Origin: Schmidtea nova | Lineage: Eukaryota | NCBI GenBank assembly: GCA_044892505.1 | Contig: CM097884.1 | Coordinates: 79,546,001 to 79,610,000 of the forward strand | Reading direction: 5' to 3' | DNA length: 64,000 nucleotides | In this document: one piece after another, positions 2,894 to 63,350 of the stretch | Layout: each line of letters begins with the position of its first letter | Numbering within the stretch: position 1 is the stretch's first letter | Program-made: the position numbers and the translations under genes | Notes under the pieces: model-generated | What the model was told of the DNA's origin: nothing | Seen by the model: the letters and a program-made list of their open reading frames with translations, nothing else | The model's database searches: none

Positions 2894-3239
2894 TAAGTGA
2901 GAAAAATTTCGATTATAAAATAATCCTCGTCAATCTCTAATTCGGCAAATAACTGGTATCTTCATTCATTCTGTTGTTTCTTTTTCGTGATTTCTCTTCC
3001 TTTACAATGAAATTATTTTTGCAGCAAAGGCTTATATTGTTACTTATTTATTAATTAATTTAATACCTAATGCTGCTAAGTGTGTATAATAAAAATTGTA
3101 ATTTGTGTTGATCGTGAATAAATTGTTCTGTGTTGGGTTCATTGAATTCGATCATTAAAGAGCACGATGAGTCATGTCAGTAAACCGATCTTAACCGAAT
3201 AATAACCCAACACTACTTCCTGAGAAAGTACTGGCAGAA

Positions 3240-13003: not shown

Positions 13004-13419
13004 TTTAATTATGATTAATTAAAATAAATTAATTATATAATGTAATGTATAAATTATAAATATGTTGGGCCCACCAATTGGTCTAAAAAGGCAAAAATAT
13101 TGTACTAATTTAAACAATAAATACAAATAATAACCACAAAAAACATTCGAAAAACCTAAATTAAAAATTAAAATAAAATAATAAATAATAAATAATAATT
13201 ACTAAATTTCCAGCAAAGGAAGAAAATCAAATTGACACGAGAACGAGCAGTATGGGGGTCTGAAATAAGAAAATTACAAATAAAATCAAATAAAAGTACA
13301 ATTAATTGGTTAATTACTTGAAAAAATCGAGACCACCCAGCGAGAAATCTGAACCGGAAATTTAAAATGGTTTATATTAAAATAAAATAACAAAATTACT
13401 TTGATGGACGGCCTGATCC

Positions 13420-13456
13420 TGATTGGTCAATCTGACCAACTGGATCAGTATAAATA
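13420..13456 (+). promoter_or_regulatory. Putative LTR promoter (ATTGG/CCAAT-type boxes followed by TATAAATA)
   Basis: GATTGGTCAATCTGACCAACTGG, then TATAAATA at 13449-13456. Motif match only. Confidence 0.5.
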
Positions 13457-14368
13457 CCGATCCAAAAATCATACAAAAAACACCTAAAAACTTAGCTACC
13501 GAACTGATCTATCATAGTCAGTTACACCAACTTTGATACGACGAATATTGTGTAAAATTTTGGAAACGCTGCATCTTGGATTTTAAGAGTAAATTTTGTT
13601 GTATTGTATTTGCATTAATTTTATGATATGTTTACATGATTCCCATTTATTTCATTTCATTTAATATAATTTATTACTATTAATTGCTCTATTTTTCTTA
13701 TGCTATTATTTTATGATATGATAAATATACTTCCTCAGTAGCTCACGCTGCGAGGGAGCAAGCCGTAAATGTGGGATTTCACCGTTCCACAAGATGGTGA
13801 GCAGAGTTTTTATTGGTATTTTTTATTTAATTTAATTTTATCGGAGGTTTCACGTTACGGTAAAGTTGTGCAGGGACAAGGACACGAGTAAAATTAGTAG
13901 ACAGTGTTTAACATTAGTCAATTAACATTCGATCAGACAGGAGAGAATAAACTACAGTATCAATTATCATGTCAATCGATTTCGCATATGCACACGATTT
14001 TTTTTGAACCCACATAGCTGATCGAAATAATGTCCGGACACACCGAGACGATTTCGACATTTCAACGATAATTTCAATTAGGATATAAATAACCACATAA
14101 TCAGATCGACGCTACTGATTGAATAAGTAAAATCGTAACCTGATCGCTGTAAATAGCGCAGGTGATAGTATGTAAATTTTTAATAAACATATCCCGATCG
14201 CTGTAGATAGCGACGGTGTTAATTGAATAGCTTAGAAAATATTTTTTTATTCCTCCCTTTCATATTTTTTTTGTTTTGTTGATCAACGAGAGAAACACAT
14301 TTCATCAGGTCTCACCAAAATTTGCGGATTCGTCACAGTAAAATTTATTAGCATTATTATTTTCTCAG

Positions 14369-14869
14369 ATGAAATCAACGATACTGGATGAATTTCTAAC
14401 AACCCAACGTCGTGTGGCACGGGACGAAAATCCTCAAATCCGGACGCAACAGAAGAAATTGAAGCCGCTTCCACAGGAACTTCTCAGAACGCTAAATGCA
14501 TTGATGTATAAATGGAGACGGGAACTAGGAAAGAAATGTCCATTTTCGATTTGGGCCGGTGGATTAGATACCATCATATATCGTGGAGGCCCCGGATGGG
14601 AAATTCAGGACGAAAGAGACCGGGAGACGACAGCTCTGTTCATCATAGTGGTGACAGACAGTGAAGGAAATCCAACGACAGTGATCCATTGGGGATATGT
14701 CTCACCGCTCAAGTTGCTTCAATTCGGGTTGATTCCGAATCACCTACCGAAAACGTGCCATGGACGCCCCAAACTAAACTATTCGATGGCTCACATCCGA
14801 CGAGATCCAGTCAATCACGGATTGCATATTACCCCCGTTCACGGCCTCAAGCGAAGCGTTTTTTACTAA
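14369..14869 (+). CDS. LTR-encoded ORF-A, 166 aa, unknown function
   Basis: ATG directly after a pyrimidine-rich AG (TTTTCTCAG). GC-richer than its flanks and open in both LTRs. Confidence 0.65.
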   Translation: MKSTILDEFLTTQRRVARDENPQIRTQQKKLKPLPQELLRTLNALMYKWRRELGKKCPFSIWAGGLDTIIYRGGPGWEIQDERDRETTALFIIVVTDSEGNPTTVIHWGYVSPLKLLQFGLIPNHLPKTCHGRPKLNYSMAHIRRDPVNHGLHITPVHGLKRSVFY

Positions 14870-15052
14870 ACATTATATTCACATTTTTATGAACTAAACT
14901 ATTTCCATAAATTAAATGGTATTGATCTGTGTTTTGTTTGTTCTTAGTTAAATTTATTTCTATTTATTTAATCATATAATTTTTTACTCGACGGATAATA
15001 TTAATCATTGGTAACATAATTGCTGCATCATAAAATGGGTTTGTTATTTAGT

Positions 15053-15643
15053 ATGACGGAAACTAGCCAACAGCGGGAATTGGATAAGGCGTGGAGAATC
15101 CGCCGAGCCTTAGAAAAGGAGCTAAATCAGGAAAAAGCATTACGAGCCAAGGCAGAAGCTCAGATTCAGTATTTACGGACCAGCTGGTTCGCCCCAGCCC
15201 GTATGAAGGAGCAGATGAGTCGGACAGAAAGGGCTCAAAAGACAGCTGACGATTATCGCACCGAATGGGAGGCCACAAAAATTGAGTTGCGCCGATGTCT
15301 CCATTCGGTGACGACCTCATTTATCGAGTCCGAATTGAAAGCACAAATCCGACCCATCACCTACCAGAAATGGGTAGGAGAACAGAAAGTGGCCTGCTCG
15401 GTCAGTACGGACACCGATGGGCTCGAGGCAACCACAGTGCAGAGTCGGGTGGAAACCACCACTGTACCAAACCCCGTCGGGAAAACGACCAAGCGAAAGC
15501 GAATCGGTTCCAAGCGCCGTCGCCAAAGAAAGCTGTTTTCTCAACAGTTGCAGACACAAGTAACCACTATGGCAGAAATGTCGGAAACCGAGTGGTTAGC
15601 AGAGATGTTCCCTCCTGAAGGAATTTTCAAAGAATTTCTGTAA
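15053..15643 (+). CDS. LTR-encoded ORF-B, coiled coil plus Arg/Lys-rich motif (KRKRIGSKRRRQRK), ~196 aa
   Basis: ATG at 15053 follows TTATTTAG. Heptad-like N-terminal half, basic NLS/ARM-like segment, acidic-hydrophobic C-terminus. Open in both LTRs. Confidence 0.65.
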   Translation: MTETSQQRELDKAWRIRRALEKELNQEKALRAKAEAQIQYLRTSWFAPARMKEQMSRTERAQKTADDYRTEWEATKIELRRCLHSVTTSFIESELKAQIRPITYQKWVGEQKVACSVSTDTDGLEATTVQSRVETTTVPNPVGKTTKRKRIGSKRRRQRKLFSQQLQTQVTTMAEMSETEWLAEMFPPEGIFKEFL

Positions 15644-16129
15644 CAGATAGAATACGATGTCAGATTTTGGAGTTAATTAAATCTTTGCTCGTTTTTGTTT
15701 TTGTTGTTGTTATTTCCTAAGTATTTCCTTCGATTACCTAATTCATATAATTAAATTACCCGTCACACAACGAAAGGAGTAGCGATAAAGTACTTAAATA
15801 TTATCAAATTCGTAGTTTCGTTTTGCTTGTTTGTTTTTTTTTTTGTTTTTACGATAAATACATAACCTCACACACACAATAGAACAATAATTGCGTAAGT
15901 CCTTCTACGGCCGCGTGAACCCGTAAGCATAAAGGGGGAGTAGTCCTAGCAATAGTGCTCACCTGCCCCTCATTGCTTAACCACCCTGCGCATCACCAAC
16001 TTGGTTATCAAGGGAAATAATCAAGGGCGCTCGAGTGTAGCTTACGACTATTTATGCATGATCATGGATGGGAGATCCCTAGCAATCATTAGAATTTTTA
16101 CCAAACCGTCCATGAACCCAGCATAAATT

Positions 16130-16147
16130 TGGGGGCTCAGCCGGGAT
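16130..16147 (+). promoter_or_regulatory. Primer binding site, tRNA-Pro
   Basis: TGGGGGCTCAGCCGGGAT starts 6 nt after the LTR end and matches the known tRNA-Pro PBS TGGGGGCTCGTCCGGGAT at 16/18 positions. Confidence 0.88.
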
Positions 16148-16497
16148 CAACTTCGTTTTATCGGAAAAATGTGAATGCAAAATCTGCAGAGAAGTTTAAA
16201 GTGCTCGTGTCGTGTGAATAAATTTAATAAAAACAGAAAATTTGTAATTAAATCTGATTATGTACAAAAATAAACAACAAACACAACAGCAAATAAAAGT
16301 AAAGTTATAAAAATCGAATGCATGCATAAATAATTTGTCGGGACGACAATTTTCGGAAACACGGGGAGAGTAAATAAATACTAAAAGATGCAAAACGAAA
16401 CATATTACCACGTTAAATATTAAAAGACAGAAAACGAGACATATTACTACTTTAAAATGATAAAACAACAAAGTTAAAACTATTATTTATTCAGCAA

Positions 16498-16959
16498 ATG
16501 GAGGAAAAACTGAAAGAAATCGAAGAATTTCTCAACACAGAAAACGAAACATTAGCAACAATTGGCAAGAAAATAAACCGATTTAGGGAAATTGAATTTC
16601 AAGAACCCACAACACAGACCGAGGAAACAGATGAATTAATAAAGATAACAGAAAGAACAAGTAAAATCGACATAAAAACCCGCTACAAATGGTACCGAGC
16701 ACGACTAGAGAATGCGGAGCTAAACATTAGATGCAGACAAATAGAACAACAATTAACCCCAACATACAATCGATGGAGGGCGCAAGGGGTAGAAGCAGCG
16801 AAAAAATACCGACAGTGCTATATATGTGAAAACAACGAGATACAAATTATGTTTTTACCTTGCGGACATTTCCGTTTTTGTAAGATCTGTGCCAGCAAGT
16901 GTGACCGATGTCCGATGTGCAACTTTACTGTGAATGAAAAAATTATAGTTTATTTGTAA
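16498..16959 (+). CDS. Coiled coil plus C-terminal IAP-type RING finger (putative E3 ligase), no BIR domain
   Basis: CYIC...IMFLPCGH..CKIC.....CPMC near the C-terminus, the IAP/MDM2-like RING pattern. Confidence 0.85.
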   Translation: MEEKLKEIEEFLNTENETLATIGKKINRFREIEFQEPTTQTEETDELIKITERTSKIDIKTRYKWYRARLENAELNIRCRQIEQQLTPTYNRWRAQGVEAAKKYRQCYICENNEIQIMFLPCGHFRFCKICASKCDRCPMCNFTVNEKIIVYL

Positions 16960-17431
16960 TAAATGTTTAGAGTTGATTAGTAAAATGTCGAATGGTGAAT
17001 CATGGGAACAATCATTGTATTTAAATAATTTTTGAGCTACTACAAGGTAGTCCGGTAAGAATCCACTGGGAGGCACCGATTGATCAACCCATTCAGAGCA
17101 TATAGAAAGGGGCCCATCGCAAATGTTGGAAAGTTTTTGTGATGTGATTGATCACCACATCCTGCATTAATAGACCAATGCGATCTTTTTGTATATTGTG
17201 GTTGGGGAGAGAGATAGGGAAATCTTGATGGAGTAAAGCGCGCATAAGAAAATAAATAAAAAGTTAAAGCAGACTGATCAGGAAATAGTTATGATAGAAT
17301 AGAGAGATAAATGACATTTTGAAAGAATAAAAGGTGCATAGTCAGCTCGCATAGAAGTAGTTATAACTCAGCTGAGAAATTTAAGTCGCTAGCGAAGTTA
17401 GGAATTGTGATTAACCGGTTAAGTAAAGTTA

Positions 17432-17637
17432 TAGGAGATTTGTCCCTTGAAACAAAGGGTTAGGAGATTTGTCCCTTGAAACAAAGGGTTAGGAGATTTG
17501 TCCCTTGAAACAAAGGGTTAGGAGATTTGTCCCTTCAAACAAAGGGTTAGGAGATTTGTCCCTTGAAACAAAGGGTTATTAGAGTTGTCCCTTGAAACAA
17601 AGGGTTATTAGCGGTTTGTCCCTTGAAAAAAAGGGTT
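17432..17637 (+). repeat. Tandem array, ~7 x 29 bp, each unit with a CCCTT-GAAACA-AAGGG hairpin
   Basis: Unit TAGGAGATTTGTCCCTTGAAACAAAGGGT read directly. Confidence 0.95.
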
Positions 17638-17679
17638 GAGGCCAACGAGCCTTATTGAATGACCTAGCTAGGCATTATG

Positions 17680-17933
17680 GAGAGATTAAATTGAGGCCAA
17701 TAGAGCCATTTGAGAGATTAAATTGAGGCCAATAGAGCCATTTGAGAGATTAAATTGAGGCCAATAGAGCCAATTGAGATATTAAATTGAGGCCAATAGA
17801 GCCAATTGAGATATTAAATTGAGGCCAATAGAGCCAATTGAGATATTAAATTGAGGCCAATAGAGCCAATTGAGATATTAAATTAAGGCCAATAGAGCCA
17901 TGTGAGATATAAAATTGAGGCCAAAGGAGCCAT
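17680..17933 (+). repeat. Tandem array, ~8 x 32 bp, rich in CCAAT
   Basis: Unit GAGA(G/T)ATTAAATTGAGGCCAATAGAGCCA(A/T)TT read directly. Confidence 0.95.
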
Positions 17934-18542
17934 AGTGGATTATAGAGATATCCGGATAAATAGTAACAGAGGGAATATAGACCCATAGTGTAATCGTCGA
18001 CGAGATTTAGAGTAGTGCGCACTAGTAGTTAAGAGAATGCGAGTAAGCTGATTATGCAACCTTAAGTAAAGCATGCAAGGAGAATAGAAAAAATTTGAGC
18101 TGACCGGAAAAACCGGCTGACTAGGTAAAACGATAGCTAGCAATGAGTAATGAATAGAGATGATAAAATAATGATAAACGAGTCAGAAAGACTCAGGGAA
18201 TTAGAGCGCTCGAGCGACCAATAAATTGGGAAACTGTGGGAAAAGTAATTGATTTGATAAAACATAGATAATTATTACGACCTAAATAGATAATTGTGAC
18301 CAGTCTATAGATAATTTAAATAGACTAAAAATAAAGGGGAATCTGGGAATGGGAAATAATGAAAACCCAGTAATAAGTAATCCCGAAAGAAAGGGAATAA
18401 AAGCGCGACGATAACAATAATGTATCGTTGAGGACCTTTGTATTTTAGATATACAAATCAATCAAATCAATCAATCAAGCAAGAAGAATCAGAACACGAT
18501 AAGAGATAGGACAAGAAAATTGAGTATACAAAAGTAATCCCC

Positions 18543-20426
18543 TTGAGAAAAGGAGCAAAGAGTGTAGTAGTAAAGCCAACGGAAAAGAAAGTCGGTAGCA
18601 ACATTAACAAAAAAGACAAAACTAGTACTACAACAAAATCAACAAAAAAGCAGAAAGCCGGCAAAGATAACCCACAAGGGAGTAAATCGAGGAAAATAAT
18701 AAGAGATAAATCGATTACCGAAAACGATAAATTGTCAATAGTAAGCAACAGCTCAAGTAACAAAGAAAACCAAGCCAAACCCAAGGAGAACCAAGCAAGT
18801 GAAATAGAGAGCGACGAAACTAACAACGATAATATCGAAGAAATAGAACACGAGATAGAACAAGAAGGAGAAATCGACGAAACTAACAACGATAATATCG
18901 AAGAAGTAGAAAACGAGGTAGAACCAGAGATAGAAATCAACGCGAGTGATAACGAAAGTATAATATCAGATAACGAAGGAATAAGAGAAACAGAAAGCGA
19001 TTCAAGCTCGAGTAAAACGGAAGACGAACATAACAACGAACTAGAAACAAGAGGAAACGAAAGTAAAATAACTCAAGACAGCGGAATTGAAATGGGTGAA
19101 CCAAGAGAAGAAATAAAGGATAAATTTTCAGGAGAACCGTTTAACGGAGATGCGAGTAAATTAGAAACCTTTTTAAAGGAATTTGGCATATTCGTGGAAG
19201 TATGCAAGTGGAAAGCGGAAACAACAGTAAGCAGAATTCAGTTATATTTGAAAGATAGTGCATTGGACCTATATTTGGAAGCGAAAAATGGTACCAATCC
19301 ACCTACAAGCTGGTCAGCGATCAAGGATTTTTTCCAACAAACATTTGGAATAAATAAAGTGCTAAGCGAGGCATTCATAGAATTTTCAATGAGGAAACAA
19401 AAGATGAATGAATCTAATGCGGTATACGCGAGCGAACTGAAAAAATTAGCAAAATCGGTATTCAAGGATGGGGGTTCAATAAACGAGGAATTAATGGCAG
19501 CCATCTTCATAGGAGGATTAAGAAGACCCGACATAAGAGCGCAAGTTGGATGCCAAGGATGCCAAACCATAGACCAAGCGTTAGAGACAGCTAACCGATT
19601 TGAATTGCATATGATAGGAAGTGAGGGCAGAATTTATTTAGCCATGGACAGAGCACAAACCGAACCAGAAGTAAATCTCAACAATCACATTCCAAATTCG
19701 CAACAATTAAACCGACCACCCCCTCAACGAAGGAACGAAGGAAATAAAGTGCAAAACTTTAGAAACCAAAACAATTACAATCCTCAAGGACAAACAAAAC
19801 AATGTAAAACATGTGGAAAATTGGGACATTGGCAGCAAGAATGCTATCAAAATTTGAATTGCGGAAAATGTGGAGTTAAAGGACACTCGGAGAGTAGATG
19901 TTCTACGATAATCTGTTTTAATTGCGGACGACCTGGTCACTACTCAAGGAATTGCGGACAAAAAGGTAATCAACGAGGAAATTGGCAGAACAACGGAAAC
20001 CGACCAAATTACGGAAATCAAACAAATACTGCAAATCGACAAGATTATGGAAACCAACAAGCCAATAATAACAATAATCAGAACAAAACTACCACCAAAG
20101 AAATACATTTGATGCAAGAAGTTCAAAGATTGACGGAACTTATAAACAATACGACGAGAGGGAACCCGCAAACCAATCAACAGCAAATTAGCATGATGAG
20201 AAAAATAGAAAACGAAAACGAACGATTGAATCGAGAAAGTCAAGCACGACACGCTCAGGAATGGGCAAGAATACAAAGAGAAGATGAACAAAAACAGAAA
20301 GAAAGAGAACGACAACCTCTAAGAATTAACATGATGAGAGTAACAAAGCAAACAGATAACCACGAGAAAGAAACCACACCGGAAATAAATTCGATAGACC
20401 CGAATCCAGCCGACAACGAAAGTTGA
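18543..20426 (+). CDS. gag: Gag: capsid-like domain, three CCHC zinc knuckles, Q/N-rich regions. First in-frame ATG at 19092.
   Basis: PFNGD...FL..F and Q...ES...Y...L capsid motifs. Three CX2CX4HX4C knuckles at 19803-19955. Start codon uncertain. Confidence 0.92.
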   Translation: MRKGAKSVVVKPTEKKVGSNINKKDKTSTTTKSTKKQKAGKDNPQGSKSRKIIRDKSITENDKLSIVSNSSSNKENQAKPKENQASEIESDETNNDNIEEIEHEIEQEGEIDETNNDNIEEVENEVEPEIEINASDNESIISDNEGIRETESDSSSSKTEDEHNNELETRGNESKITQDSGIEMGEPREEIKDKFSGEPFNGDASKLETFLKEFGIFVEVCKWKAETTVSRIQLYLKDSALDLYLEAKNGTNPPTSWSAIKDFFQQTFGINKVLSEAFIEFSMRKQKMNESNAVYASELKKLAKSVFKDGGSINEELMAAIFIGGLRRPDIRAQVGCQGCQTIDQALETANRFELHMIGSEGRIYLAMDRAQTEPEVNLNNHIPNSQQLNRPPPQRRNEGNKVQNFRNQNNYNPQGQTKQCKTCGKLGHWQQECYQNLNCGKCGVKGHSESRCSTIICFNCGRPGHYSRNCGQKGNQRGNWQNNGNRPNYGNQTNTANRQDYGNQQANNNNNQNKTTTKEIHLMQEVQRLTELINNTTRGNPQTNQQQISMMRKIENENERLNRESQARHAQEWARIQREDEQKQKERERQPLRINMMRVTKQTDNHEKETTPEINSIDPNPADNES

Positions 20427-20477
20427 AAAGAGTTAGTACAAAAAGATGAGGAAGTAAGAAAAGAAGCAGAAAAGGAA

Positions 20478-32400: not shown

Positions 32401-35400
32401 CAAAATACCAAACACCTAAAGCAGCCATGACAATACAACAGTCACCCAAAGGAGATTACATCATCGAAAAATGTGGAAGAACAGAGACACAGGGAACAGA
32501 AAACAAAAAACCCCAGGCAATAGATAAGCAAACAACACCAACTATACGAATTACAATAGAGAGGCCCGAAGCGAGAGTTGCCACAAACGAAACCGAAAGA
32601 GTGACTTACCAAATGGAAGTATTATGCTTAGCACTCATACTAATAATAATAAAACGACTAGAGGAAGGGATAGAAATCGAAACTATGACAATAACAGAAG
32701 TAGAAGATACACAGAATACTAACATAAAATGTTGGGCGAGGAATAACGAGGAAATCGGCGTAAATGAAATAAGGAAAAGTCGAAAACCAACAACGAATAA
32801 AGTAATTAAAGTATCCGAAGTAAAAGCAGATAAAACGTACAAACTATGCCTACTAGAAAAAGAGAGAAACAAGAAAGGTACCACAAAATGTAAAACATTC
32901 CAACCTGGAGAAGTAATAAAGTTCAGAAGGAGAACGAGGAAGAGAAATAAACAAATCAAGCGGAAAGTAAACATAACATTAGAAATAAAAGAGATAGAAC
33001 CAAATGTGAAAGGAGTATGCTGGAGGAAGTACGAAAAAGAAGTAAATAAAAGAACGACACCACAATGTCGAACAAACACAGGAACAACGACGATTCAAAT
33101 AAAAGGTTTAGAAAGTAAACAAACCTACGAAATATGTTTGGTAAAGAAAAATGATCAGATAACGATAAACGACCTAGAATGCGGAATATATACAACTTCA
33201 TCCGGAACAAGAACCAAAACGTTAACACGGAAAAATAAAAGGAAACAACAAAACAAAGAAAAACCGAAGTACACCACTACCTTTAAAAACAATAAACAAC
33301 CAACAAACCAAGAAGTTACGACGAAACCCGAGAGAAAAACATCAGCAACTCTAACATTATGGAAAATAGAGAATAAAACATTAGAAATATGTTGGATAAT
33401 AGTACAGAAACATATAAGAAGACAATCAAGAGAATGCAGAAAAACAAATAAAGAAATCAAGATCGAAAAACTACAATTTAATAGCGAGTATGAAGTATGC
33501 GCAATAGAAATAATGGACGCACTAGGAAACCAACAAGAAAGATGCGAAACCTACTATACACCAGCGAACGCAACATCAAAAGGAATAACAAGGAAACTCG
33601 AATTCAGGGAACTAAGCCAAACGAATGAACAAATGGACGCAGAAAAAACAATAACCGACCCTCAAGCAAAATGGACACCCGAAGAAGTTATCAAAGAAGT
33701 CAAAAGAAAGCAAGAGGAACGAGAACAATTAATGAGAAAACTAAAGGGACAATATGGAATAATGTTCAACCAAAGCGAATCTATACAAACAGACGAGAAT
33801 AAAGAAATTAAAGAACTAATCGGCTTAGGAATATTAACAGCGACCATACCAGTAATAATCGCGTTATCAGCTATATGGATACGCAAGATAAGCCCAAGAA
33901 AATCAACAACCCAATGGCTAAATATAGATAATACAAGCCATGGAGTCGAAATACTAGAAGCACGAGAAGAACCAAGATCGACCAGGAATGAGAAAGAAGC
34001 AAAAGGCGGAAAACTGGGAATGAACAACGAAGACAAAGAAATAGAAGAGATTAAAAGCAAAGAGACGAAATATGAAAGGCGAACCAGAAGCCTACCGCAG
34101 AGTTCAAAATGGTTGGGTCTAACAATAATATTGACATTAATCAATAGGGAAGAAGCAATAAACCCACAGACAGGGATAAAAGTAATAAATGTTCAGGAAG
34201 TCGAGAAAATATGTTGGTATAGAGAAGATGAACCAATTGGAGAAAATAACCCACTAAAATGCATAATCCGAAAATCCGACCAGGATATAGTACGAATAGA
34301 AGAAATGGATGGAGGGACCATGCATCGGATATGCATAATAAAAAAGGAAAAGAAGTCGGGGCTACCTAAGACAGTCGTATGTCAAAAATATGAAACACCT
34401 AGACTTGAATGGTATAGAGTAAAACCAACAAAGAAAGAAATCAAAAACACAATAGATCAACCAGCAACTCAGATAAGAAACACAACGGATAAACCAGGAG
34501 AAGGGGAGAGAAGCACCAATAACACGAGAGAAAGAATATCACCTCAACAGGAGTGCGTATGCATAGCATTAATACTAGCAATGTCCAAACGTCTCGACAG
34601 AGGAATAATAATAGAACAAATGGCCATAACAATAAGAAAAACAAGCAGCAACAAACTATGCTGGGGAACATACAACGAACCAAGGAAGGAATACCAAGTT
34701 CAGACAAGCGACGAATCACAAACAAACAAGGAAATCGAAATACAAGAAATACAAATGAATGAAGAAGGAAGTATATGTATCTGGGAGAGAGGAATCCAAG
34801 AGGGAATAGAGCATTGCAAGACATTCCAAAAAGGAGAGGTACTGAAATTCGATGAAGAAAAATTAACAAAGACAGAAAGAACTCTGACAATAACAGGACT
34901 CGATCAAACAGTTAAAGGAATATGTTGGACAAAGCATAACCCAGAAGGGGAAGAAGACAATCTAACCCACTGTAAAGAAACAGGGAATAAGGAAAAAGTC
35001 GAATTAAAGAAAATGGAAGTAAATAAGACATACGCGATATGTACCTTCACCAGAAAAGGTTCAGAAAAACCAGAATGCGGATTATATCAGATCTCAGAGA
35101 AACTTCAACAACAGATCAAACCAGGAAACGTGGAAAACCGAACAAAAGAAAATAACGTCAAACAACTACTAAACCGCCATTGGTCTACCCAAGAAGTAAT
35201 GAACAAAGTCAAGAGTCAAATACAAAAAGAGAAGAAGCCAGAGGCTCAAACCCAAAATGAGATAAAAGCGAATCAGAAGAAAATCAAAGCAACAAACCGT
35301 GGAAAAACCGTAATAGGACTAATCAGTATAGGAATATTAATAGCATATGGAATACTGACGACAAGCATAATAGTATATTGGAGATACAGAAAGAGAAACA

Positions 35401-35564: not shown

Positions 35565-35689
35565 GGGCGGATTATGACTGTAAATAATAGTGTAAATAAC
35601 AAAGCATTACCGTAATAGTATGGGTATCGATATTATAAAAATTGTAAAAAGATAGAAAAGCAAAGTAAATGATGTATATAATTTAGAAA

Positions 35690-36046
35690 ATGACCGAACA
35701 GGACGAAACAACTGAAATAACTATGGCCATGAGATGGAAAGCACAATGCGATTTATTAGTACGGGCAGTCAACTCATTACAGAACCAATTAGCGGAAAAA
35801 CAAATGTTACTATCAGAAAGTTACAATAATTGTTTTGAACAATTACACAGAATAGAGGAACAACAAAGAGTGATAACCGAGCTCACCAGAGAAAATCAAA
35901 CTATAAGCAACATCAATCAAAGACAAGCGATAGAAATAAACCACTTGACACGAGGAGAAAGAGAAGAATCTGAAGAAGGATGGATGAGTTGGGTAATAAA
36001 TAGATTAAACAACGAAGCGGAACCAGATTCAACGAATGAGCCATAG
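35690..36046 (+). CDS. Small coiled-coil protein, 118 aa
   Basis: Clean ATG to stop, heptad pattern, same codon style as the element. Confidence 0.7.
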   Translation: MTEQDETTEITMAMRWKAQCDLLVRAVNSLQNQLAEKQMLLSESYNNCFEQLHRIEEQQRVITELTRENQTISNINQRQAIEINHLTRGEREESEEGWMSWVINRLNNEAEPDSTNEP

Positions 36047-36138
36047 ATAAATAAAGCGAAAAACTGTAAATATGTAAAAATAAAAACAAGAAAAATCAAA
36101 AATAAATGACAAGTCGAATGTATATATTATTGTAGAAA

Positions 36139-37515
36139 ATGGACAGAGAAGAACGAACAATCGAAATCTTGAGATTAGAAAACAGAAAATGGAGCAAGAG
36201 GCTCACATGCGGGAAGTGTAACAATTTATTACGAGAACCTAGACAAACGATATGTGGATGTAGAATATGTACAAAATGTATACAAGAATTAGATGCAACA
36301 GGAATAACAACATGCCCAGAATGTAAAGAAGGAAGAATAGTGTTGGACGAAACCAGAACGGATAAAGCAACCCAGAGAGAAATTATGAGCACCATAACGG
36401 AGTGCGTAAATACACCTTGTACATGGCAAGGACAAATAAGCAATCTAGAAAATCACATGGAAAATTGCGAAGAGAAAAGAGCCGAATGCGAGAAGTGTCA
36501 ACAGATAATAATTCTAAAGAAGAAAGAACAACACAAGGACGAATGTAAAGAAGAAGAAATCGCATGCAAGTATTGTGAAACTCGAGAGACAAGGAGGAGA
36601 ATCGAAGAAGAACACTTAAATATAACAGAGGAGAAAGTATGCGGACAATATGTAAGCAAATGTCCAAACAATTGCGAAATAACAGAAGAAATAAAGTTAC
36701 ATGAACATTGGAAAATATGTACCGAAAGGCCAAGAGAATGTCCATATAACAAGCATGGATGCAAGGAAAAGCGGACGCGAAAAACAATGAAACAACACTT
36801 GGAGGAAGCAGCATTAATGCATGTGGAGATGACAAACGAGGCGGCAAAAGAAACAGAACAGACAATCCAGAAACTGGAAAAGGAAGTAGAATCACATAAA
36901 ATAATGATGAGTTTACTACTAGAAACAAGAGAGCAGTTTGAACTAACTCGCAAAAGAATGGAAGAAAAAATAATAGCCATAGAAGAATTGGGAAAAGGAA
37001 TGAAAATACAATATAATCAATTAATACGAGAAATTGACGAAAGAAAGGACTTACCAATTGCACCTTACCTATGGAAAATAACAGATTTTAGAGACAAACT
37101 AACAGAGGCCCGAAATATGACTAAAACAGCAGTAATAAGCCCACCATTTTATTTATGGAAAAATGGGGTTAAAATAAGATTGAAAGTATACCCAAATGGA
37201 GACGGAAGAGGACAAGGAACACACGTGTCAATATTTTTCTCGTTATGTAAAGGAGAATACGATGACCTAATAGAATGGCCCTTGAAAGTAGGAGTCATTA
37301 TAAGAATCAAAAGTATAGGAAAACCAGTAGAAAAGTTCTTTGAAACAGACAAACATACGAGTACAAGCGAAAAACCAACAACAGAATGCGGACTAGCAGC
37401 AGGAGAACCAATGTTTATAAGGAAAGAAAACCTATGGGAGCGACTGTATGCAGACACGCTATACATAGAGATGGAGAGGCATGAGAAAACAGACAGAAAA
37501 GGATGGTTGGCGTAA
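36139..37515 (+). CDS. TRAF-family protein (RING, TRAF zinc fingers, coiled coil, MATH), intronless
   Basis: CGKC...CGCRICTKC...CPEC, several TRAF-type zinc fingers, and MATH motifs YLWKITDF, SPPFY and YPNGDGRGQGTHVSIF...GEYDDLIEWP. Confidence 0.95.
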   Translation: MDREERTIEILRLENRKWSKRLTCGKCNNLLREPRQTICGCRICTKCIQELDATGITTCPECKEGRIVLDETRTDKATQREIMSTITECVNTPCTWQGQISNLENHMENCEEKRAECEKCQQIIILKKKEQHKDECKEEEIACKYCETRETRRRIEEEHLNITEEKVCGQYVSKCPNNCEITEEIKLHEHWKICTERPRECPYNKHGCKEKRTRKTMKQHLEEAALMHVEMTNEAAKETEQTIQKLEKEVESHKIMMSLLLETREQFELTRKRMEEKIIAIEELGKGMKIQYNQLIREIDERKDLPIAPYLWKITDFRDKLTEARNMTKTAVISPPFYLWKNGVKIRLKVYPNGDGRGQGTHVSIFFSLCKGEYDDLIEWPLKVGVIIRIKSIGKPVEKFFETDKHTSTSEKPTTECGLAAGEPMFIRKENLWERLYADTLYIEMERHEKTDRKGWLA

Positions 37516-37626
37516 TGAAGAAAGTAACCATGTAAATAAACTGTATAAAACAATATGAAATAACAAATAATCAAAAACAATAAAAATAAAAACTGATTAA
37601 ATATTCTTTTATCTGTAATTATAGAA

Positions 37627-38689
37627 ATGGGAAATATAGAGGTAACCTTACAAGAAGTAACCGTACATCAAGACGAAATGATCAGAAATCACATGGAGCG
37701 GATTGGGATATGGATTCACGCCTATTATCGAAAACAGGAGGAATTAGAAAGACAAACCCAAGCACTAAGAGAAGCCGAGAAATCGAATCAAAGAAGTCGA
37801 GAAAAAATAGAAGAAGTCTACAAACTGCTAAGACAACAAAACGAATACTACAAAGGGATGATGAAAGAGCGACGAGAGGATAGGGATAGACAACAGATAA
37901 AAACAGACCATAAGATTCAGTCAATCACAGAACAAGCAAGATATTGGAAAAAAAGAGGCAAAAGACTCTTACAAGGAAGCAAGGGAGATAATAGAACGAA
38001 CAGCGTACAGCGATGATTGGAAACTGTTTAAAGAGATCGATGAATTAAAAGAAGAATTAGGGAAAAAGATCAGTCAAGAAGCGTCAAATAAAGTATGGAG
38101 TAAGAAAAGACAACAATTCATCAGGGAACAAGCCAAGAAAATTAAAGAATTAACTCACCAAGTGCAAAGAATGGGAGAAGATTTAGCCAATCAAGAACAA
38201 TTAAAAGGTATGCTGACCGGAATGTGGAATCACAAGGAAGAAAACATGAAAAGAGACATAAATGGATATCAAGGAGTGATTACCCAGAAGAAAATAGAAT
38301 TAAAAAGAACTAAAGAAAGACTGGAAGAAACGAGGCAGAGTTATGAAGAGAACATAACAAATTTGACAAAAGAAAACGAAGAACTGAGAAAGAAGCTAAC
38401 AGAAAAACCAGTACCCACAAAGGAAACAAGTATCACAGCAGCAGTGACCGAAATGATAGAGAAAGAAGAGAGAGAGAAAAAATTAGCAGAACTAGAAAAA
38501 CAAATAGAAACCCTAACAGAGCAGGCGAACTATCTGGAATACTTATTAGATGAAGAGATCCAGATATCCCACACGTACCGAGAGGAAGTGGAAATGTGGA
38601 GGAGTACGGTAATATGGATGCCACTCCCCATAAATCAGGTGGAACCTCAAGACGAAGGTTTTCACGAACCTAACGAAACCCTCGTGTAA
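37627..38689 (+). CDS. Long coiled-coil protein (~353 aa) split by a 1-nt frameshift in an A7 run at 37948-37954
   Basis: Removing one A joins ORF 37627 to an open frame (KEAKDSYKEARE...) that continues into ORF 38162-38689. Confidence 0.7.
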
Positions 38690-38768
38690 ATGAGCGGAAA
38701 CCAATTGTAAATAGATGATGTAAAATAAAAAGCGTCAAGCTGTATTGACTCCTATGTAAAGATAGAAA

Positions 38769-39329
38769 ATGAGAAAGCTCGCAATACCAATACTCCTAGG
38801 GTTAATAACCATCACCCTACAGAGAGAAGATCTACAACTTACCGAAACCCAATTACGAGTTCTACCCGACAAAACCTACCAAAAAGTAGACAGCCTAATC
38901 GAAGAAGTAATTAAAGAAATCAACGAATTCCGACAGAAATATCCCCACAATCAAGATCATCAAATCCAACAAATCTTAGATAACCAACAACTGAAACTAA
39001 AAGAAACCCAAAAAACCCTGAAAGAAGGTAGAGAGCCCATAAAAAGCCTAGCCCAAGCTGAAATAGAATATCAAGAGAAATGGATCATAGCAATCATCAT
39101 AATCCTCTCAATCAGCGTAACTATCATCGCAATCACAATCCTGATTGCCTCCTACCGGATAAAAATCCTCAAACAGAAACAAACCATCGTCAACCAAACA
39201 TCAAGGCGAGACAACCGAACCCAAAGACGTATGAGAAACCATCTAGATCGAATTCAGACCCACTACGAATTAGCTACAATCAATGAGAGAACTCAAACCC
39301 AACCCAATGCGAGCCGGAGGATCGAATAG
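38769..39329 (+). CDS. Small type-I membrane protein (signal peptide, helical ectodomain, TM, basic tail), 186 aa
   Basis: MRKLAIPILLGLITITLQ and WIIAIIIILSISVTIIAITILIA. Confidence 0.75.
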   Translation: MRKLAIPILLGLITITLQREDLQLTETQLRVLPDKTYQKVDSLIEEVIKEINEFRQKYPHNQDHQIQQILDNQQLKLKETQKTLKEGREPIKSLAQAEIEYQEKWIIAIIIILSISVTIIAITILIASYRIKILKQKQTIVNQTSRRDNRTQRRMRNHLDRIQTHYELATINERTQTQPNASRRIE

Positions 39330-40853
39330 ACTTTGTGAACATTTCTGATGAACCTTTGACTATCCTGTGACAATAATCTGATAATATTCAACTATCCTAT
39401 GACAAATCTTATGATGTATATAAATTCTATCACCTTAAGTGATTTTCTTTGTGTTTATGTGTATATCTGTAAAACTTTTTATGTATGATGTTATAAGTAG
39501 ATATGTATAATTAATTGCGGGACGCAATTTTAGGGGTCCCCGAGTGATGTTGGGCCCACCAATTGGTCTAAAAAGGCAAAAATATTGTACTAATTTAAAC
39601 AATAAATACAAATAATAACCACAAAAAACATTCGAAAAACCTAAATTAAAAATTAAAATAAAATAATAAATAATAAATAATAATTACTAAATTTCCAGCA
39701 AAGGAAGAAAATCAAATTGACACGAGAACGAGCAGTATGGGGGTCTGAAATAAGAAAATTACAAATAAAATCAAATAAAAGTACAATTAATTGGTTAATT
39801 ACTTGAAAAAATCGAGACCACCCAGCGAGAAATCTGAACCGGAAATTTAAAATGGTTTATATTAAAATAAAATAACAAAATTACTTTGATGGACGGCCTG
39901 ATCCTGATTGGTCAATCTGACCAACTGGATCAGTATAAATACCGATCCAAAAATCATACAAAAAACACCTAAAAACTTAGCTACCGAACTAATCTATCAT
40001 AGTCAGTTACACCAACTTTGATACGACGAATATTGTGTAAAATTTTGGAAACGCTGCATCTTGGATTTTAAGAGTAAATTTTGTTGTATTGTATTTGCAT
40101 TAATTTTATGATATGTTTACATGATTCCCATTTATTTCATTTCATTTAATATAATTTATTACTATTAATTGCTCTATTTTTCTTATGCTATTATTTTATG
40201 ATATGATAAATATACTTCCTCAGTAGCTCACGCTGCGAGGGAGCAAGCCGTAAATGTGGGATTTCACCGTTCCACAAGATGGTGAGCAGAGTTTTTATTG
40301 GTATTTTTTATTTAATTTAATTTTATCGGAGGTTTCACGTTACGGTAAAGTTGTGCAGGGACAAGGACACGAGTAAAATTAGTAGACAGTGTTTAACATT
40401 AGTCAATTAACATTCGATCAGACAGGAGAGAATAAACTACAGTATCAATTATCATGTCAATCGATTTCGCATATGCACACGATTTTTTTTGAACCCACAT
40501 AGCTGATCGAAATAATGTCCGGACACACCGAGACGATTTCGACATTTCAACGATAATTTCAATTAGGATATAAATAACCACATAATCAGATCGACGCTAC
40601 TGATTGAATAAGTAAAATCGTAACCTGATCGCTGTAAATAGCGCAGGTGATAGTATGTAAATTTTTAATAAACATATCCCGATCGCTGTAGATAGCGACG
40701 GTGTTAATTGAATAGCTTAGAAAATATTTTTTTATTCCTCCCTTTCATATTTTTTTTGTTTTGTTGATCAACGAGAGAAACACATTTCATCAGGTCTCAC
40801 CAAAATTTGCGGATTCGTCACAGTAAAATTTATTAGCATTATTATTTTCTCAG

Positions 40854-41354
40854 ATGAAATCAACGATACTGGATGAATTTCTAACAACCCAACGTCGTGT
40901 GGCACGGGACGAAAATCCTCAAATCCGGACGCAACAGAAGAAATTGAAGCCGCTTCCACAGGAACTTCTCAGAACGCTAAATGCATTGATGTATAAATGG
41001 AGACGGGAACTAGGAAAGAAATGTCCATTTTCGATTTGGGCCGGTGGATTAGATACCATCATATATCGTGGAGGCCCCGGATGGGAAATTCAGGACGAAA
41101 GAGACCGGGAGACGACAGCTCTGTTCATCATAGTGGTGACAGACAGTGAAGGAAATCCAACGACAGTGATCCATTGGGGATATGTCTCACCGCTCAAGTT
41201 GCTTCAATTCGGGTTGATTCCGAATCACCTACCGAAAACGTGCCATGGACGCCCCAAACTAAACTGTTCGATCGCTCACATCCGACGAGATCCAGTCAAT
41301 CACGGATTGCATATTACCCCCGTTCACGGCCTCAAGCGAAGCGTTTTTTACTAA
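40854..41354 (+). CDS. LTR ORF-A, 3' LTR copy
   Basis: Same as 14369-14869 except Y>C and M>I. Confidence 0.6.
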   Translation: MKSTILDEFLTTQRRVARDENPQIRTQQKKLKPLPQELLRTLNALMYKWRRELGKKCPFSIWAGGLDTIIYRGGPGWEIQDERDRETTALFIIVVTDSEGNPTTVIHWGYVSPLKLLQFGLIPNHLPKTCHGRPKLNCSIAHIRRDPVNHGLHITPVHGLKRSVFY

Positions 41355-41537
41355 ACATTATATTCACATTTTTATGAACTAAACTATTTCCATAAATTAA
41401 ATGGTATTGATCTGTGTTTTGTTTGTTCTTAGTTAAATTTATTTCTATTTATTTAATCATATAATTTTTTACTCGACGGATAATATTAATCATTGGTAAC
41501 ATAATTGCTGCATCATAAAATGGGTTTGTTATTTAGT

Positions 41538-42128
41538 ATGACGGAAACTAGCCAACAGCGGGAATTGGATAAGGCGTGGAGAATCCGCCGAGCCTTAGAA
41601 AAGGAGCTAAATCAGGAAAAAGCATTACGAGCCAAGGCAGAAGCTCAGATTCAGTATTTACGGACCAGCTGGTTCACCCCAGCCCGTATGAAGGAGCAGA
41701 TGAGTCGGACAGAAAGGGCTCAAAAGACAGCTGACGATTATCGCACCGAATGGGAGGCCACAAAAATTGAGTTGCGCCGATGTTTCCATTCGGTGACGAC
41801 CTCATTTATCGAGTCCGAATTGAAAGCACAAATCCGACCCATCACCTACCAGAAATGGGTAGGAGAACAGAAAGTGGCCTGCTCGGTCAGTACGGACACC
41901 GATGGGCTCGAGGCAACCACAGTGCAGAGTCGGGTGGAAACCACCACTGTACCAAACCCCGTCGGGAAAACGACCAAGCGAAAGCGAATCGGTTCCAAGC
42001 GCCGTCGCCAAAGAAAGCTGTTTTCTCAACAGTTGCAGACACAAGTAACCACTATGGCAGAAATGTCGGAAACCGAGTGGTTAGCAGAGATGTTCCCTCC
42101 TGAAGGAATTTTCAAAGAATTTCTGTAA
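41538..42128 (+). CDS. LTR ORF-B, 3' LTR copy
   Basis: Same as 15053-15643 except A>T and L>F. Confidence 0.6.
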   Translation: MTETSQQRELDKAWRIRRALEKELNQEKALRAKAEAQIQYLRTSWFTPARMKEQMSRTERAQKTADDYRTEWEATKIELRRCFHSVTTSFIESELKAQIRPITYQKWVGEQKVACSVSTDTDGLEATTVQSRVETTTVPNPVGKTTKRKRIGSKRRRQRKLFSQQLQTQVTTMAEMSETEWLAEMFPPEGIFKEFL

Positions 42129-43179
42129 CAGATAGAATACGATGTCAGATTTTGGAGTTAATTAAATCTTTGCTCGTTTTTGTTTTTGTTGTTGTTATTT
42201 CCTAAGTATTTCCTTCGATTACCTAATTCATATAATTAAATTACCCGTCACACAACGAAAGGAGTAGCGATAAAGAACTTAAATATTATCAAATTCGTAG
42301 TTTCGTTTTGCTTGTTTGTTTTTTTTTGTTTTTACGATAAATACATAACCTCACACACACAATAGAACAATAATTGCGTAAGTCCTTCTACGGCCGCGTG
42401 AACCCGTAAGCATAAAGGGGGAGTAGTCCTAGCAATAGTGCTCACCTGCCCTCATTGCTTAACCACCCTGCGCATCACCAACTTGGTTATCAAGGGAAAT
42501 AATCAAGGGCGCTCGAGTGTAGCTTACGACTATTTATGCATGATCATGGATGGGAGATCCCTAGCAATCATTAGAATTTTTACCAAACCGTCCATGAACC
42601 CAGCAAATATATAAGTTCAAATTCGAAATTGATTTATTAAATTTGTAATTAATTTTCGCTTTACGTATTTACACGCATTTCAATGTACATTAAAACAAAA
42701 AGAAAACACATAAGGTATAGTAACTACAAGAGTTACTTACATATATCCCCCCGGAAAAAGTGCGGCGCATGTGGAAACCATTGTCTGGAGCGAACACACT
42801 TTTTATTTACATATTTATTTACAGGTGTATATAGATTTGCGACAACTTTGGGGAGGTAGAGAAAACAAATAAAAAAAGGGTTTATTGTAGGTTTTCTTTT
42901 TATTATAAGTGTTTTTAGGTTATTTTATGGTGCGTATCAACCGTGTAGGGGTATTTTCCGGGTGTCCTACTGTTCTTTCACGTACGCAATATGCGAAAGA
43001 TTTCTTTTTGGATCTTGTATTTGATGAAGGTCTGTCTTGTTGATTGTTTTTTAGAATCGATTTTTTGTTTGATTGTTTGTTCTTTATGTCTTGAGTTTCA
43101 AATGATGTGTTTGGTTTGTATGTTTGTTCGGTGTTGTTTGGTATTGTTGTATTTGTCTGAAAATCATTCGTTTGATTTT

Positions 43180-45450: not shown

Positions 45451-45766
45451 TGTATTTTTTATTTTCTTTAGAAAAGTTTCAGAATTCATATTTTCAATCA
45501 TATTTCCGTATAGCATAGATTCATCTGATAATGATTGATGTAAAGATTCTACTGCCTCTTCTGACACCATTTTAATTTTAATTAATTAAAATACATCAAT
45601 TATATAATGTAATGTATAAATTATAAATATATATGTTCAAATGCGTAATTGATTTATTAAATTTGTAATTAATTTTCGCTTTACGTATTTACACGTATTT
45701 CAATGTACATTAAAACAAAACGAAAACCTATAAAATATAGTAACTACAAGAGTTACTTACAGCATA

Positions 45767-60013: not shown

Positions 60014-60021
60014 ACTTTACT

Positions 60022-60660: not shown

Positions 60661-60714
60661 ATTTAAAAATTATATTTAATTAATATTATTGTTTATATTT
60701 GTTTTAAATACTCG

Positions 60715-62610: not shown

Positions 62611-62674
62611 TTGTTATTTAATAAATTTTTACTATGAACAATTTTAGTTTTTATATTAGTTTTTTGTTTTTAAA

Positions 62675-63181: not shown

Positions 63182-63350
63182 TATTCCAAAGAATAATATT
63201 CCTAAAAATAATAATATTCCGATGAATAATATTACAATGAATAATATTCCGAGTAATAATTTAGATGTGAATAATTTTGAATCAAAATTTTGTACACGCA
63301 CACAACAATATATTTATAAATAAATTTTATTTTTGACTTTTTTATGACTT

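Follow-up and report, generated by a model that had tools for sequence, protein, structure and literature searches.

The locus examined here raises the question of whether a giant retroelement of Schmidtea nova is an intact, virus-like agent equipped with functional cell-death and immunity genes, as a sequence-only reading had proposed. The window analyzed is a 64,000-nucleotide stretch of contig CM097884.1, and the element occupies 29,543 bp of it (13063..42605; features lie on the forward strand unless stated otherwise). It is bounded by a 5' LTR of 3,061 bp (13063..16123) and a 3' LTR of 3,058 bp (39548..42605), which have TG..CA ends and are 99.7% identical (3052 identities, 6 mismatches, and 3 gap bases), and it is flanked by the TSD AATA (13059..13062 and 42606-42609); an exact 4-bp TSD was also found in four of five evaluable other copies. 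Downstream of the 5' LTR are a PBS complementary to the 3' end of a host tRNA-Pro(TGG) (16130..16147) and two leader tandem arrays (17432..17932; 29 bp x7 and 32 bp x8). In place of a polypurine tract before the 3' LTR is a conserved hairpin with a G/C run (39512..39547), which gives a 7-bp stem on folding and is common to a sister family discussed below. The insertion target was one LTR of a small, decayed Gypsy element on the reverse strand (42606..45761), whose other LTR provides the empty-site twin (45571-45761). The LTRs, TSD, and PBS claimed initially therefore hold, and together with a gypsy-type RT in PR-RT-RH-IN order they identify a Ty3/gypsy (Metaviridae) LTR retroelement.

The family has roughly 140-220 copies, based on 223 PBS-leader matches and 142 TRAF-start matches in the genome; a count of 428 from an LTR-PBS pattern was dropped, as 12 of 20 sampled matches belonged to other elements. 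Nine of the 10 copies chosen are colinear with the window copy, at other loci and with their own TSDs, which confirms that the element is real. Within nine copies, the two LTRs of each pair share 99.0-99.9% identity, whereas the copies themselves are ~5% apart, so many lineages replicated recently. Altogether, the LTR pair, TSD, PBS, and copy number show ordinary retrotransposition. The description of the element as intact, however, does not stand. A TGA (20424..20426) parts gag from a 5,045-codon env-pol frame in the window copy, and because this position holds a sense codon in all of the 29 other copies, it is a break (a mutation or an assembly error) and programmed readthrough is ruled out; no frameshift or readthrough site was found in the element. 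Further, a frame-changing indel near 37,940 splits an accessory ORF, and all nine covering copies differ from the window copy at that place. In other copies the polyprotein is a single frame of ~5,500 codons in the order gag-Ubl-Bcl2-Env-PR-RT-RH-IN-ANK-FN3/TM, in which 18 stops were seen, every one a singleton. In every one of 10 full-length copies the frame is broken one to six times, and therefore none of them can make the polyprotein as written. The window element is thus a young, recently inserted but broken copy of a multi-copy family.

Ahead of the first gag Met is an open frame of 194 codons (18510..19091; pN/pS 0.37) that begins after a conserved TAG|G and is probably reached by splicing or a non-AUG start. 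Gag itself (19092..20423; pN/pS 0.11) has a capsid region and CCHC knuckles. Env (24042..25958) is a gB-type, class III glycoprotein (PF24664, E 6e-71) with an internal signal sequence, an ectodomain with 14 Cys, and a transmembrane segment by hydropathy, in agreement with the Env-like glycoprotein first noticed. Next come an aspartic protease, with its DTGA at 26490, and a domain without a Pfam match that occupies the position of the dUTPase-like domain in Burro (26433..27071 together), and then RT (YIDD at 27705), RNase H, and integrase (HHCC, D-D35-E) at 27324..29831, with a dN/dS of 0.02-0.03. The zinc knuckles and the catalytic motifs DTGA, YIDD, and D-D35-E are all present, as originally read. 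Env with its signal and TM segment lies before pol, as in the gB-type GAG-ENV-POL errantiviruses, and in a quick RT tree a branch (SH-aLRT 96) separated 21 elements with a gB Env in their polyprotein from the rest. The Env/Pol topology used below was derived from hydropathy only, and a second hydrophobic stretch (1830-1844) behind the Env TM segment, also seen by hydropathy, could alter it.

Between gag and Env the polyprotein has three ubiquitin-like domains (21324-21551, 21846-22094, and 22683-22898), with profile matches to a ubiquitin design (E 4e-4) and ubiquilin (E 0.017). They lack di-glycine ends, and a role as deubiquitinase processing signals was dropped. A Bcl-2-fold domain follows (23439..23951), with a BH2 GGW motif; the canonical BH1 NWGR was not seen. 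Pfam gave E 0.12 for this region alone and a profile search E 7e-5 to Bcl-xL, and all Foldseek matches listed against the PDB were Bcl-2-family chains (best E 5e-3), at 7-19% identity to solved structures. Searches of the region alone against PDB sequences, and of the Ubl-Bcl2 region against short proteins, gave no match. In four families (window, sister, and two further ones) BH2 lies ~35-50 residues ahead of the Env signal. Behind the integrase are two ankyrin blocks (29934..31766), which match generic repeats only, and seven FN3-like repeats with an invariant CW..C..C, an internal signal-like segment, and two transmembrane segments (32109..35561), which are predicted to form two type-I membrane proteins. 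The tentative FN3 assignment draws on an Atlas lead (0.92), Pfam (E 0.008), and TIE2 (E 0.2), and a repeat of the sister family exceeds the fn3 cut-off; one repeat folded as a single sequence reached pLDDT 53, too low for use, and the first half of the module had no relative among 1.84 billion representatives. The ubiquitin-like, Bcl-2-like, and ankyrin calls of the sequence-only reading thus passed profile or fold searches, and the three membrane proteins that it listed were recovered besides Env.

The remaining genes are separate ORFs. Each LTR contains two of them, given here for the 5' LTR and repeated in the 3' LTR: LTR-ORF1 (14369..14869; 166 aa; pN/pS 0.37), whose ATG is directly behind a pyrimidine-rich CAG and which has no Pfam or Atlas match, and LTR-ORF2 (15035..15643; 202 aa; pN/pS 0.20). 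In a second LTR type, LTR-ORF1 has a counterpart of similar length (40% aa identity) and LTR-ORF2 one with 58-60% aa identity; LTR-ORF2 is also 39% identical over 82 aa in one sister LTR. In the leader, a 153-aa ORF (16498..16959) ends in an IAP-type RING, best matched by the cIAP2/XIAP RING (E 3e-10), and has a homolog in the corresponding position of the sister family. The IAP-type RING called initially therefore stands. An IAP protein proper has at least one BIR; Pfam found no BIR in any ORF of the element, and the sister family has one. Downstream of the polyprotein are a 118-aa coiled-coil ORF (35690..36046; pN/pS 0.09), with a 34% identical homolog before TRAF in the sister family; a full-length, intronless TRAF of 458 aa (36139..37515) with RING, Zn fingers, coiled coil, and MATH, best matching TRAF3/5/2 and so bearing out the full TRAF that had been called; a coiled-coil ORF of ~353 aa in most copies (37627..38689; pN/pS 0.07-0.11), which is the one split by frameshift in the window copy; and a 186-aa protein with a signal peptide and a transmembrane segment (38769..39329; pN/pS 0.21). 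Of the six accessory ORFs, every one except LTR-ORF2 begins within 3 nt of a YAG, compared with 48 of 609 ATGs, and the AG before those five is kept in every covering copy. Among the matches listed from four contig sets of unspecified kind, no clear GT..AG joints were seen, which speaks neither for nor against splicing.

All cargo modules have a pN/pS of 0.07-0.37 across copies (Env 0.07, Bcl-2 0.11, TRAF 0.12, ANK 0.13, Ubl 0.14, FN3 0.21 and 0.33, RING ORF 0.22), compared with 0.86-0.97 in shifted frames and 0.53 in an intergenic control; the in-frame linkers of the polyprotein are higher, at 0.24-0.29, and Env is as conserved as the protease. The dN/dS sample was restricted to copies with TRAF and pol; among eight family copies drawn without this bias, three were deleted. 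Every module is also present in the sister family, at saturated synonymous sites. Purifying selection on all cargo is thereby shown, and the possibility that it is absent from other copies or evolves neutrally there is not borne out. Since Env and the cell-death and signaling genes are under selection, the family likely travels in particles wrapped in membrane and probably affects the survival of host cells.

The sister family is 89% identical to the window family in RT-RH and 25-44% in cargo; an RT/IN swap between the two was ruled out, with synonymous sites saturated throughout. Its layout matches that published for Burro1, with MATH inside an ORF1 of ~4,900 aa, and its TRAF and BIR-RING IAP genes adjoin. 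It exists mostly as a cargo-only derivative (14 of 20 sampled; 2,407 sites) without gag core, env, RT, or IN, in which TRAF (0.12), ankyrin (0.13), and IAP (0.27) remain under selection. Two of the 20 sister copies have their own gag, and both, when followed further, also have env and pol, so the window family is not needed as a helper.

The window element likely belongs to the planarian Burro group, a placement based on how it is built, on the sister family, and on resemblance by eye to published S. mediterranea env fragments. In the available part of the review by Arkhipova and Yushenova (2019; PMC6431247), Burro is listed with MATH/TRAF, BIR, ankyrin, BCL2, Ubi/SUMO, and an in-frame env, with BIR given for Burro1-4 and MATH as a separate ORF in a D. 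tigrina element. As far as Burro1-4 and GYPSM1 are described there, they share with the window family a size of ~30 kb, tandem repeats, high copy number, an IAP-type RING, and TRAF/MATH accessory ORFs, as well as one very large ORF that encodes gag, Ubl, BCL2, PR-(dUTPase-like)-RT-RH-IN, and ankyrins, with env placed between gag and pol. Relative to that description, the window family lacks BIR and has no MATH inside ORF1, its TRAF being a full-length 3' gene, and it has an ORF of ~5,500 codons, seven FN3-like repeats, two TM segments, and two ORFs per LTR. We file it as a Burro variant rather than Burro1 because BIR is absent. The idea of a Burro-like giant Gypsy element with real, selected cargo is supported by the size, single ORF, cargo, and pN/pS; as for novelty, most of the cargo and the architecture appear in the published Burro descriptions available, to which this analysis adds pN/pS, the seven FN3-like repeats, the LTR ORFs, the splice-acceptor-like AGs, the position of Bcl-2 before the Env signal, and the predicted attachment of Pol to the tail of Env.

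Other known systems resemble the element in part. The platyhelminth GAG-ENV-POL errantiviruses (Smed_errantivirus_1-6) have a gB-type Env between gag and pol in spans of 14.5-18 kb (PMC13524379); by eye, the window env is ~40% identical to that of Smed_errantivirus_5, the sister env ~57% to that of Smed_errantivirus_6, and another env family of the host genome ~85% to that of Smed_errantivirus_1. That paper treats Env and Pol, and its main text has no mention of Burro, ankyrin, fibronectin, immunoglobulin, or accessory genes; foamy-like ERVs are mentioned in PMC6431247. The window element shares with complex retroviruses and foamy-like ERVs the accessory ORFs 3' of pol and in the LTR, the apparent splice acceptors, and tRNA-Pro priming. 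In complex retroviruses, accessory genes are expressed from spliced RNAs. Unlike in complex retroviruses, RT here is of the Ty3/gypsy type, Env is class III rather than class I, and env precedes pol in one frame. Large DNA viruses (vBcl-2, baculovirus IAP, poxvirus ankyrins) use the same folds as the cargo, and a viral fold search of the Bcl-2 domain had viral Bcl-2 proteins on top (best E 0.04); however, cellular Bcl-xL outscores the viral homologs, and nothing points to transfer from DNA viruses.

We consider it likely that the window holds a recent, broken Burro-group copy whose family makes a polyprotein cut by host signal peptidase and its own protease, buds in an envelope, and carries cargo that dampens cell death. 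The internal signal would send Env into the ER lumen and, after cleavage, the signal helix may remain on the Bcl-2 domain as its C-terminal anchor, an arrangement known from cellular Bcl-2 proteins. The Env TM helix would then return the chain to the cytosol, so that Pol would start as the tail of Env instead of being joined to Gag. Packaging of Pol would then be confined to sites where Env accumulates, and no copying, within or between cells, could proceed without budding and later membrane fusion. A conserved word at the PR, RH/IN, and IN/ANK borders in both families is a candidate mark of the protease cuts; the pattern was drawn with the sequence already in view, which biases the shuffle test on it (7 vs. 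1.7). The RING, TRAF, coiled-coil, membrane, and LTR ORFs may be expressed from spliced RNAs, similar to complex-retrovirus accessory genes; Bcl-2, RING, and TRAF would act on apoptosis and ubiquitin signaling and keep the producing cell alive, and the FN3 proteins would act at the cell surface.

The family could also be a true infectious virus, whose enveloped particles would leave the soma, for example, to infect stem cells or the germ line, or would pass to other worms, using FN3 proteins for attachment and the cargo for immune evasion. Its gB-type fusogen, the conservation of Env at the level of the protease, and relatives that likewise have a post-integrase signal, an Ig or other ectodomain, and a TM segment are in its favor, and earlier authors proposed integrated proviruses (PMC6431247). 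We regard it as possible but doubtful: related families recur in S. mediterranea, by a by-eye match to published env fragments, a pattern consistent with the vertical inheritance that PMC13524379 argues for in errantiviruses, and the predicted attachment of Pol to the tail of Env would explain conservation of Env without an extracellular step. Pol on the Env tail is thus predicted to make the envelope obligatory without proving infection, and a conserved env alone is not evidence of infection. An extended version is speculative and, in our judgment, unlikely: obligately enveloped flatworm retroviruses with Pol on the Env tail, Bcl-2 anchored by the Env signal, and FN3 proteins for attachment or as decoys, whose particles would move between cells or worms and carry a more numerous cargo-only satellite delivering TRAF and IAP to stem cells.

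Rather unlikely, too, is a mutualism in which the cargo persists mainly because it helps the worm (in regeneration and the survival of stem cells), with the element as its delivery vehicle. The Burro1 IAP was reported to be anti-apoptotic and to protect stem cells (cited in PMC13465017), and the cargo-only form, with TRAF, ankyrin, and IAP selected, is in the majority in the sister family. However, BIR is absent from the window family, and selection acting among scattered copies would be expected just as well if the cargo helped the element to copy itself. The signal in the derivative may partly come from autonomous parents by recombination, and a PIWI phenotype was not rescued by RNAi of Burro1, with Burro being a piRNA target (PMC8532177).

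The sequence-only reading had the cargo converge, as a coordinated block, on the TNF-receptor/TRAF/cIAP/NF-kB pathway, which is left unsupported and which we hold to be improbable. The TRAF is TRAF2/3/5-like, the RING is cIAP-like, the two gene types adjoin in the sister family, and planarian RHD-ANK proteins exist (PMC6211748). Against this, the ankyrins match generic repeats only, and clear NF-kB homologs were not identified in S. mediterranea (PMC13563047). A Rel-homology search of the host genome gave no match, as did its positive control. The usual TRAF-cIAP contact runs via BIR1, and it would be missing in the window family because there is no BIR. That the element is an assembly artefact or neutral passenger DNA is extremely improbable and ruled out for the element as such by the colinear copies with TSDs and the purifying selection in every module, even if errors in the sequence could account for the stop and the frameshift peculiar to the window copy.

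We therefore return to the preferred reading of a Burro-group family with an envelope and cell-death cargo. Burro elements as proviruses meddling with apoptosis were an earlier open idea (PMC6431247); the selection data make Env and each cargo module working parts of a replicating family rather than passengers, and the predicted Pol-on-Env topology would give a concrete reason for env standing before pol. For planarian biology, hundreds to thousands of element-borne intronless TRAF/IAP genes may underlie some of the TRAF expansion that planarian transcriptome studies describe (PMC6109357, PMC7586133) and, if so, the RNAi results on that expansion would read differently.

The element at 13063-42605 is very probably a Burro element, one of the giant Ty3/gypsy elements described from planarians. 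Its LTRs (3,061 and 3,058 bp) start with TG, end with CA, differ at six bases and three gap positions, and are flanked on both sides by AATA; the insertion target is an LTR of a decayed small Gypsy element, whose second LTR (45571-45761) displays the uninterrupted (empty) site. The PBS sequence complements the 3' end of a tRNA-Pro(TGG) gene present in G000, the genome searched for copies, where such genes lie in a long tandem array that repeats every 308 bp (locus L168 on C1; 1,106 pattern matches genome-wide). Pfam matches include CCHC knuckles, protease (PR), RT, RNase H (RH), integrase (IN), ankyrins (ANK), RING, zf-TRAF, and MATH, the catalytic motifs are present, and Env matches a Monjiviricetes (gB-type) fusion protein (E 6e-71). 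The LTRs, target site duplication, PBS, gag, catalytic motifs, Env-like glycoprotein, ankyrins, and full TRAF of the sequence-only reading are thereby confirmed. Upstream of the 3' LTR (39512-39547), no clear polypurine tract is seen; the site instead has a hairpin and G/C run kept across two families with saturated synonymous sites. Each LTR contains two ORFs (LTR-ORF1 and LTR-ORF2) with no function assigned. Nearby, a host thiolase exon lies at 49186-49806 (minus strand), and the element may sit inside or close to this gene. Remnants of small DNA transposons, with transposase-like ORFs and terminal inverted repeats, occur at 1544-3066, 3184-4009, and 6263-7505.

The weaker calls, Bcl-2 and ubiquitin-like (Ubl), hold with added profile and predicted-fold evidence. 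A profile built from ten natural Bcl-2-like regions matches Bcl-xL (E 7e-5); the best of five models of the region reached pLDDT 76 (the remaining four 42-56), and all PDB matches listed for it by Foldseek are Bcl-2-family chains (best E 5e-3). A profile of six Ubl regions matches a ubiquitin design (E 4e-4). The claimed IAP-type RING stands as far as its nearest relatives are the cIAP2 and XIAP RINGs; no BIR domain was found beside it in the element.

This copy is not intact as had been supposed, because a TGA (20424-20426) follows gag and an indel near 37,940 changes the frame. The TGA shares its frame with an env-pol ORF of 5,045 codons, and the codon is sense in 29 of 29 other copies (the best 30 of 40 scored matches minus the window locus itself); at the indel the copy differs from all nine copies that cover it, the majority of them with a 353-aa ORF at that place. 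Both could be either mutations or assembly errors. Ten other copies were compared: nine share the colinear layout (one of these without its 3' end), and the tenth carries a large deletion. No stop in their long frame recurs (18 stops, each a singleton), and the ten full-length frames, including this one, have 1-6 breaks each. The window family thus encodes a single polyprotein, broken in this copy.

The cargo is under selection, as a comparison across genomic copies demonstrates. With each variant counted once in 6-11 copies picked for having both pol and TRAF, pN/pS was 0.03 for RT and 0.07-0.37 elsewhere, vs. 0.86 and 0.97 in shifted frames and 0.53 in intergenic sequence: Env 0.07, Bcl-2 and gag 0.11, TRAF 0.12, ANK 0.13, Ubl 0.14, LTR-ORF2 0.20, a 186-aa TM protein 0.21, the RING ORF 0.22, the FN3 module 0.21 and 0.33, and LTR-ORF1 and the gag leader 0.37. 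Values of ~0.35 are weak taken alone because of the intergenic control; LTR-ORF1 is further supported by a 40% identical ORF in a second LTR type.

A PBS-plus-leader pattern matched 223 sites in G000 and a TRAF-start pattern 142. A looser LTR-PBS pattern matched 428, which was rejected as a copy number since just 8 of 20 evenly spaced matches belong to the window family (five whole through env, three deleted); nine others have a different gag and three nothing related. Those nine (L195, L197, L198, L200, L201, L205, L207, L212, L213) form a third family sharing the LTR end and PBS, with a ~1,030-codon gag-like ORF (47% identical, one additional knuckle); neither Ubl nor env occurs within 10 kb, and the family may be a gag-only form. 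LTR pairs in eight other window-family copies are 99.0-99.9% identical, with 4-bp TSDs, while copies are ~5% apart and even among private variants most are synonymous, which suggests recent replication of many source lineages. Two LTR types (68-75% alike in their alignable parts) occur on one shared internal region (94-96% identical in the second type, at L035, L043, L050, and L062), which points to LTR exchange within the family.

The final 1,150 polyprotein residues contain seven repeats with an invariant CW..C..C, between signal-like and two transmembrane segments. These repeats look FN3-like, judging from leads in Atlas (below its recognition threshold) and Pfam (E 0.008) and from one sister-family repeat that exceeds the fn3 cut-off; the first half of the module had no relative among 1.84 billion representatives. 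Eleven metagenomic polyproteins have the same gag-env-pol order. Hydrophobic segments follow integrase in all seven checked, and Ig domains in two. In the metagenomic gag-env-pol relatives P0017, P0019, P0020, P0021, P0024, and P0027, the aspartic protease domain occurs two or three times, once behind integrase. Five of six accessory ORFs start no more than 3 nt from a YAG, and the AG of that triplet is conserved in all covering copies (background, 48 of 609 ATGs). A short word, its pattern drawn post hoc, is repeated in both the window and the sister family, at the PR, RH/IN, and IN/ANK borders. The FN3-like repeats, LTR ORF pairs, YAG-linked starts, and border word are additions to the sequence-only reading, which had left them unresolved.

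Family searches of G000 gave 1,295 BIR, 1,679 Bcl-2, and 3,413 Env candidates. The BIR matches fall in the sister family, which shares with the window family its PBS, LTR start, and pre-LTR hairpin, and has a 3' row of coiled-coil, TRAF, BIR-RING IAP, coiled-coil, TM, and TM proteins. Its LTR-PBS junction matched 2,407 sites. Among 20 evenly spaced copies, 14 encode RING, Ubl, protease, and ankyrin without gag core, env, RT, or IN, two are full, one has another deletion, and three are uninformative; 16 of 18 further, BIR-selected copies are also short. This cargo-only element of 23-26 kb (e.g., L133/L078/L166, L171-L190), the majority of the ~2,400 sites, contains RING, Ubl-protease-ankyrin-TM, TRAF, BIR-RING IAP, and two TM proteins; its protease motif looks intact in all 21 copies checked. 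Sister LTR pairs in two copies are 99.7-99.8% identical, and cargo dN/dS is 0.12-0.27 for TRAF, ANK, and IAP, 0.57 for Ubl, and 0.51 for BIR alone (few sites). Every module of the full sister has its homologue in the window element, with saturated synonymous sites (identity: RT-RH 89%, Env 32-75%, Bcl-2 32%, ANK 25-31%). In a quick tree of RT-RH with 39 rows, its outgroup limited to plant, algal, arachnid, and unnamed gypsy rows, the 21 elements whose polyprotein includes a gB Env lie on one side of a branch (SH-aLRT 96). Two more env-in-polyprotein families in G000 (L104, L122-L123, L128-L129, L141-L146) have a Bcl-2-like domain ahead of the Env signal and hydrophobic segments after integrase. 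Separately, a 4.5-kb element at 59293-63777 with 90-bp terminal inverted repeats has a TBP-like ORF (Pfam E 9e-14) and a split packaging-ATPase-like ORF, the motif of which we take to be Polinton-like; the N-terminal 37 aa of its secreted-type ORF (62660-63178) match a sister Burro membrane cargo protein (E 4e-11), suggesting possible cargo sharing between DNA and retroelements.

Most of this element is known. According to PMC6431247, Burro elements have MATH_TRAF_C, BIR, ankyrin, BCL2-like, Ubi/SUMO, and dUTPase-like domains and an in-frame env between gag and pol, and are proposed as proviruses meddling with apoptosis. The full sister, with MATH inside a ~4,900-aa ORF1, matches the published Burro1 layout. 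The window element is real and very probably a Burro variant that is BIR-less, FN3-expanded, and broken in this copy. Other sources report gB-type GAG-ENV-POL elements in flatworms, six of them in S. mediterranea (PMC13524379); abundant, PIWI-controlled Burro1 (PMC8532177), whose BIR-RING protein reportedly protects stem cells (Lee et al., 2026, as cited in PMC13465017); over 100 MATH transcripts (PMC6109357, PMC7586133); RHD-ANK proteins and a planarian nidovirus with ankyrins (PMC6211748); and, for S. mediterranea, no clearly identified homologue of NF-kB (PMC13563047). The passages considered from PMC11410931 and PMC13238120 add nothing on cargo. In our literature search nothing describing FN3 proteins, LTR ORFs, cargo dN/dS, or the cargo-only form came up; Grohme 2018, Jurka 2007, and Lee 2026 with supplements, outside its reach, may describe them.

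To the demonstrated retrotransposition signals, single family polyprotein, and selected cargo we would add the following steps. Signal peptidase may free Env and leave the signal helix behind to anchor the Bcl-2 domain by its tail; this would account for the position of BH2, ~35-50 residues ahead of the Env signal, in four families. The Env TM segment would leave PR-RT-RH-IN as a cytosolic tail of Env, a step for and against which we see about equal odds; Pol would then get into particles through Env, budding and fusion would be obligatory, and Env would be conserved with or without an extracellular stage. An infectious window element, which the sequence-only reading raised as a possibility, seems rather unlikely. 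The element protease would then release the enzymes, and spliced RNAs would give the accessory proteins. We consider this scheme as a whole the probable best explanation, in which Bcl-2, RING, and TRAF would likely keep the producing cell alive.
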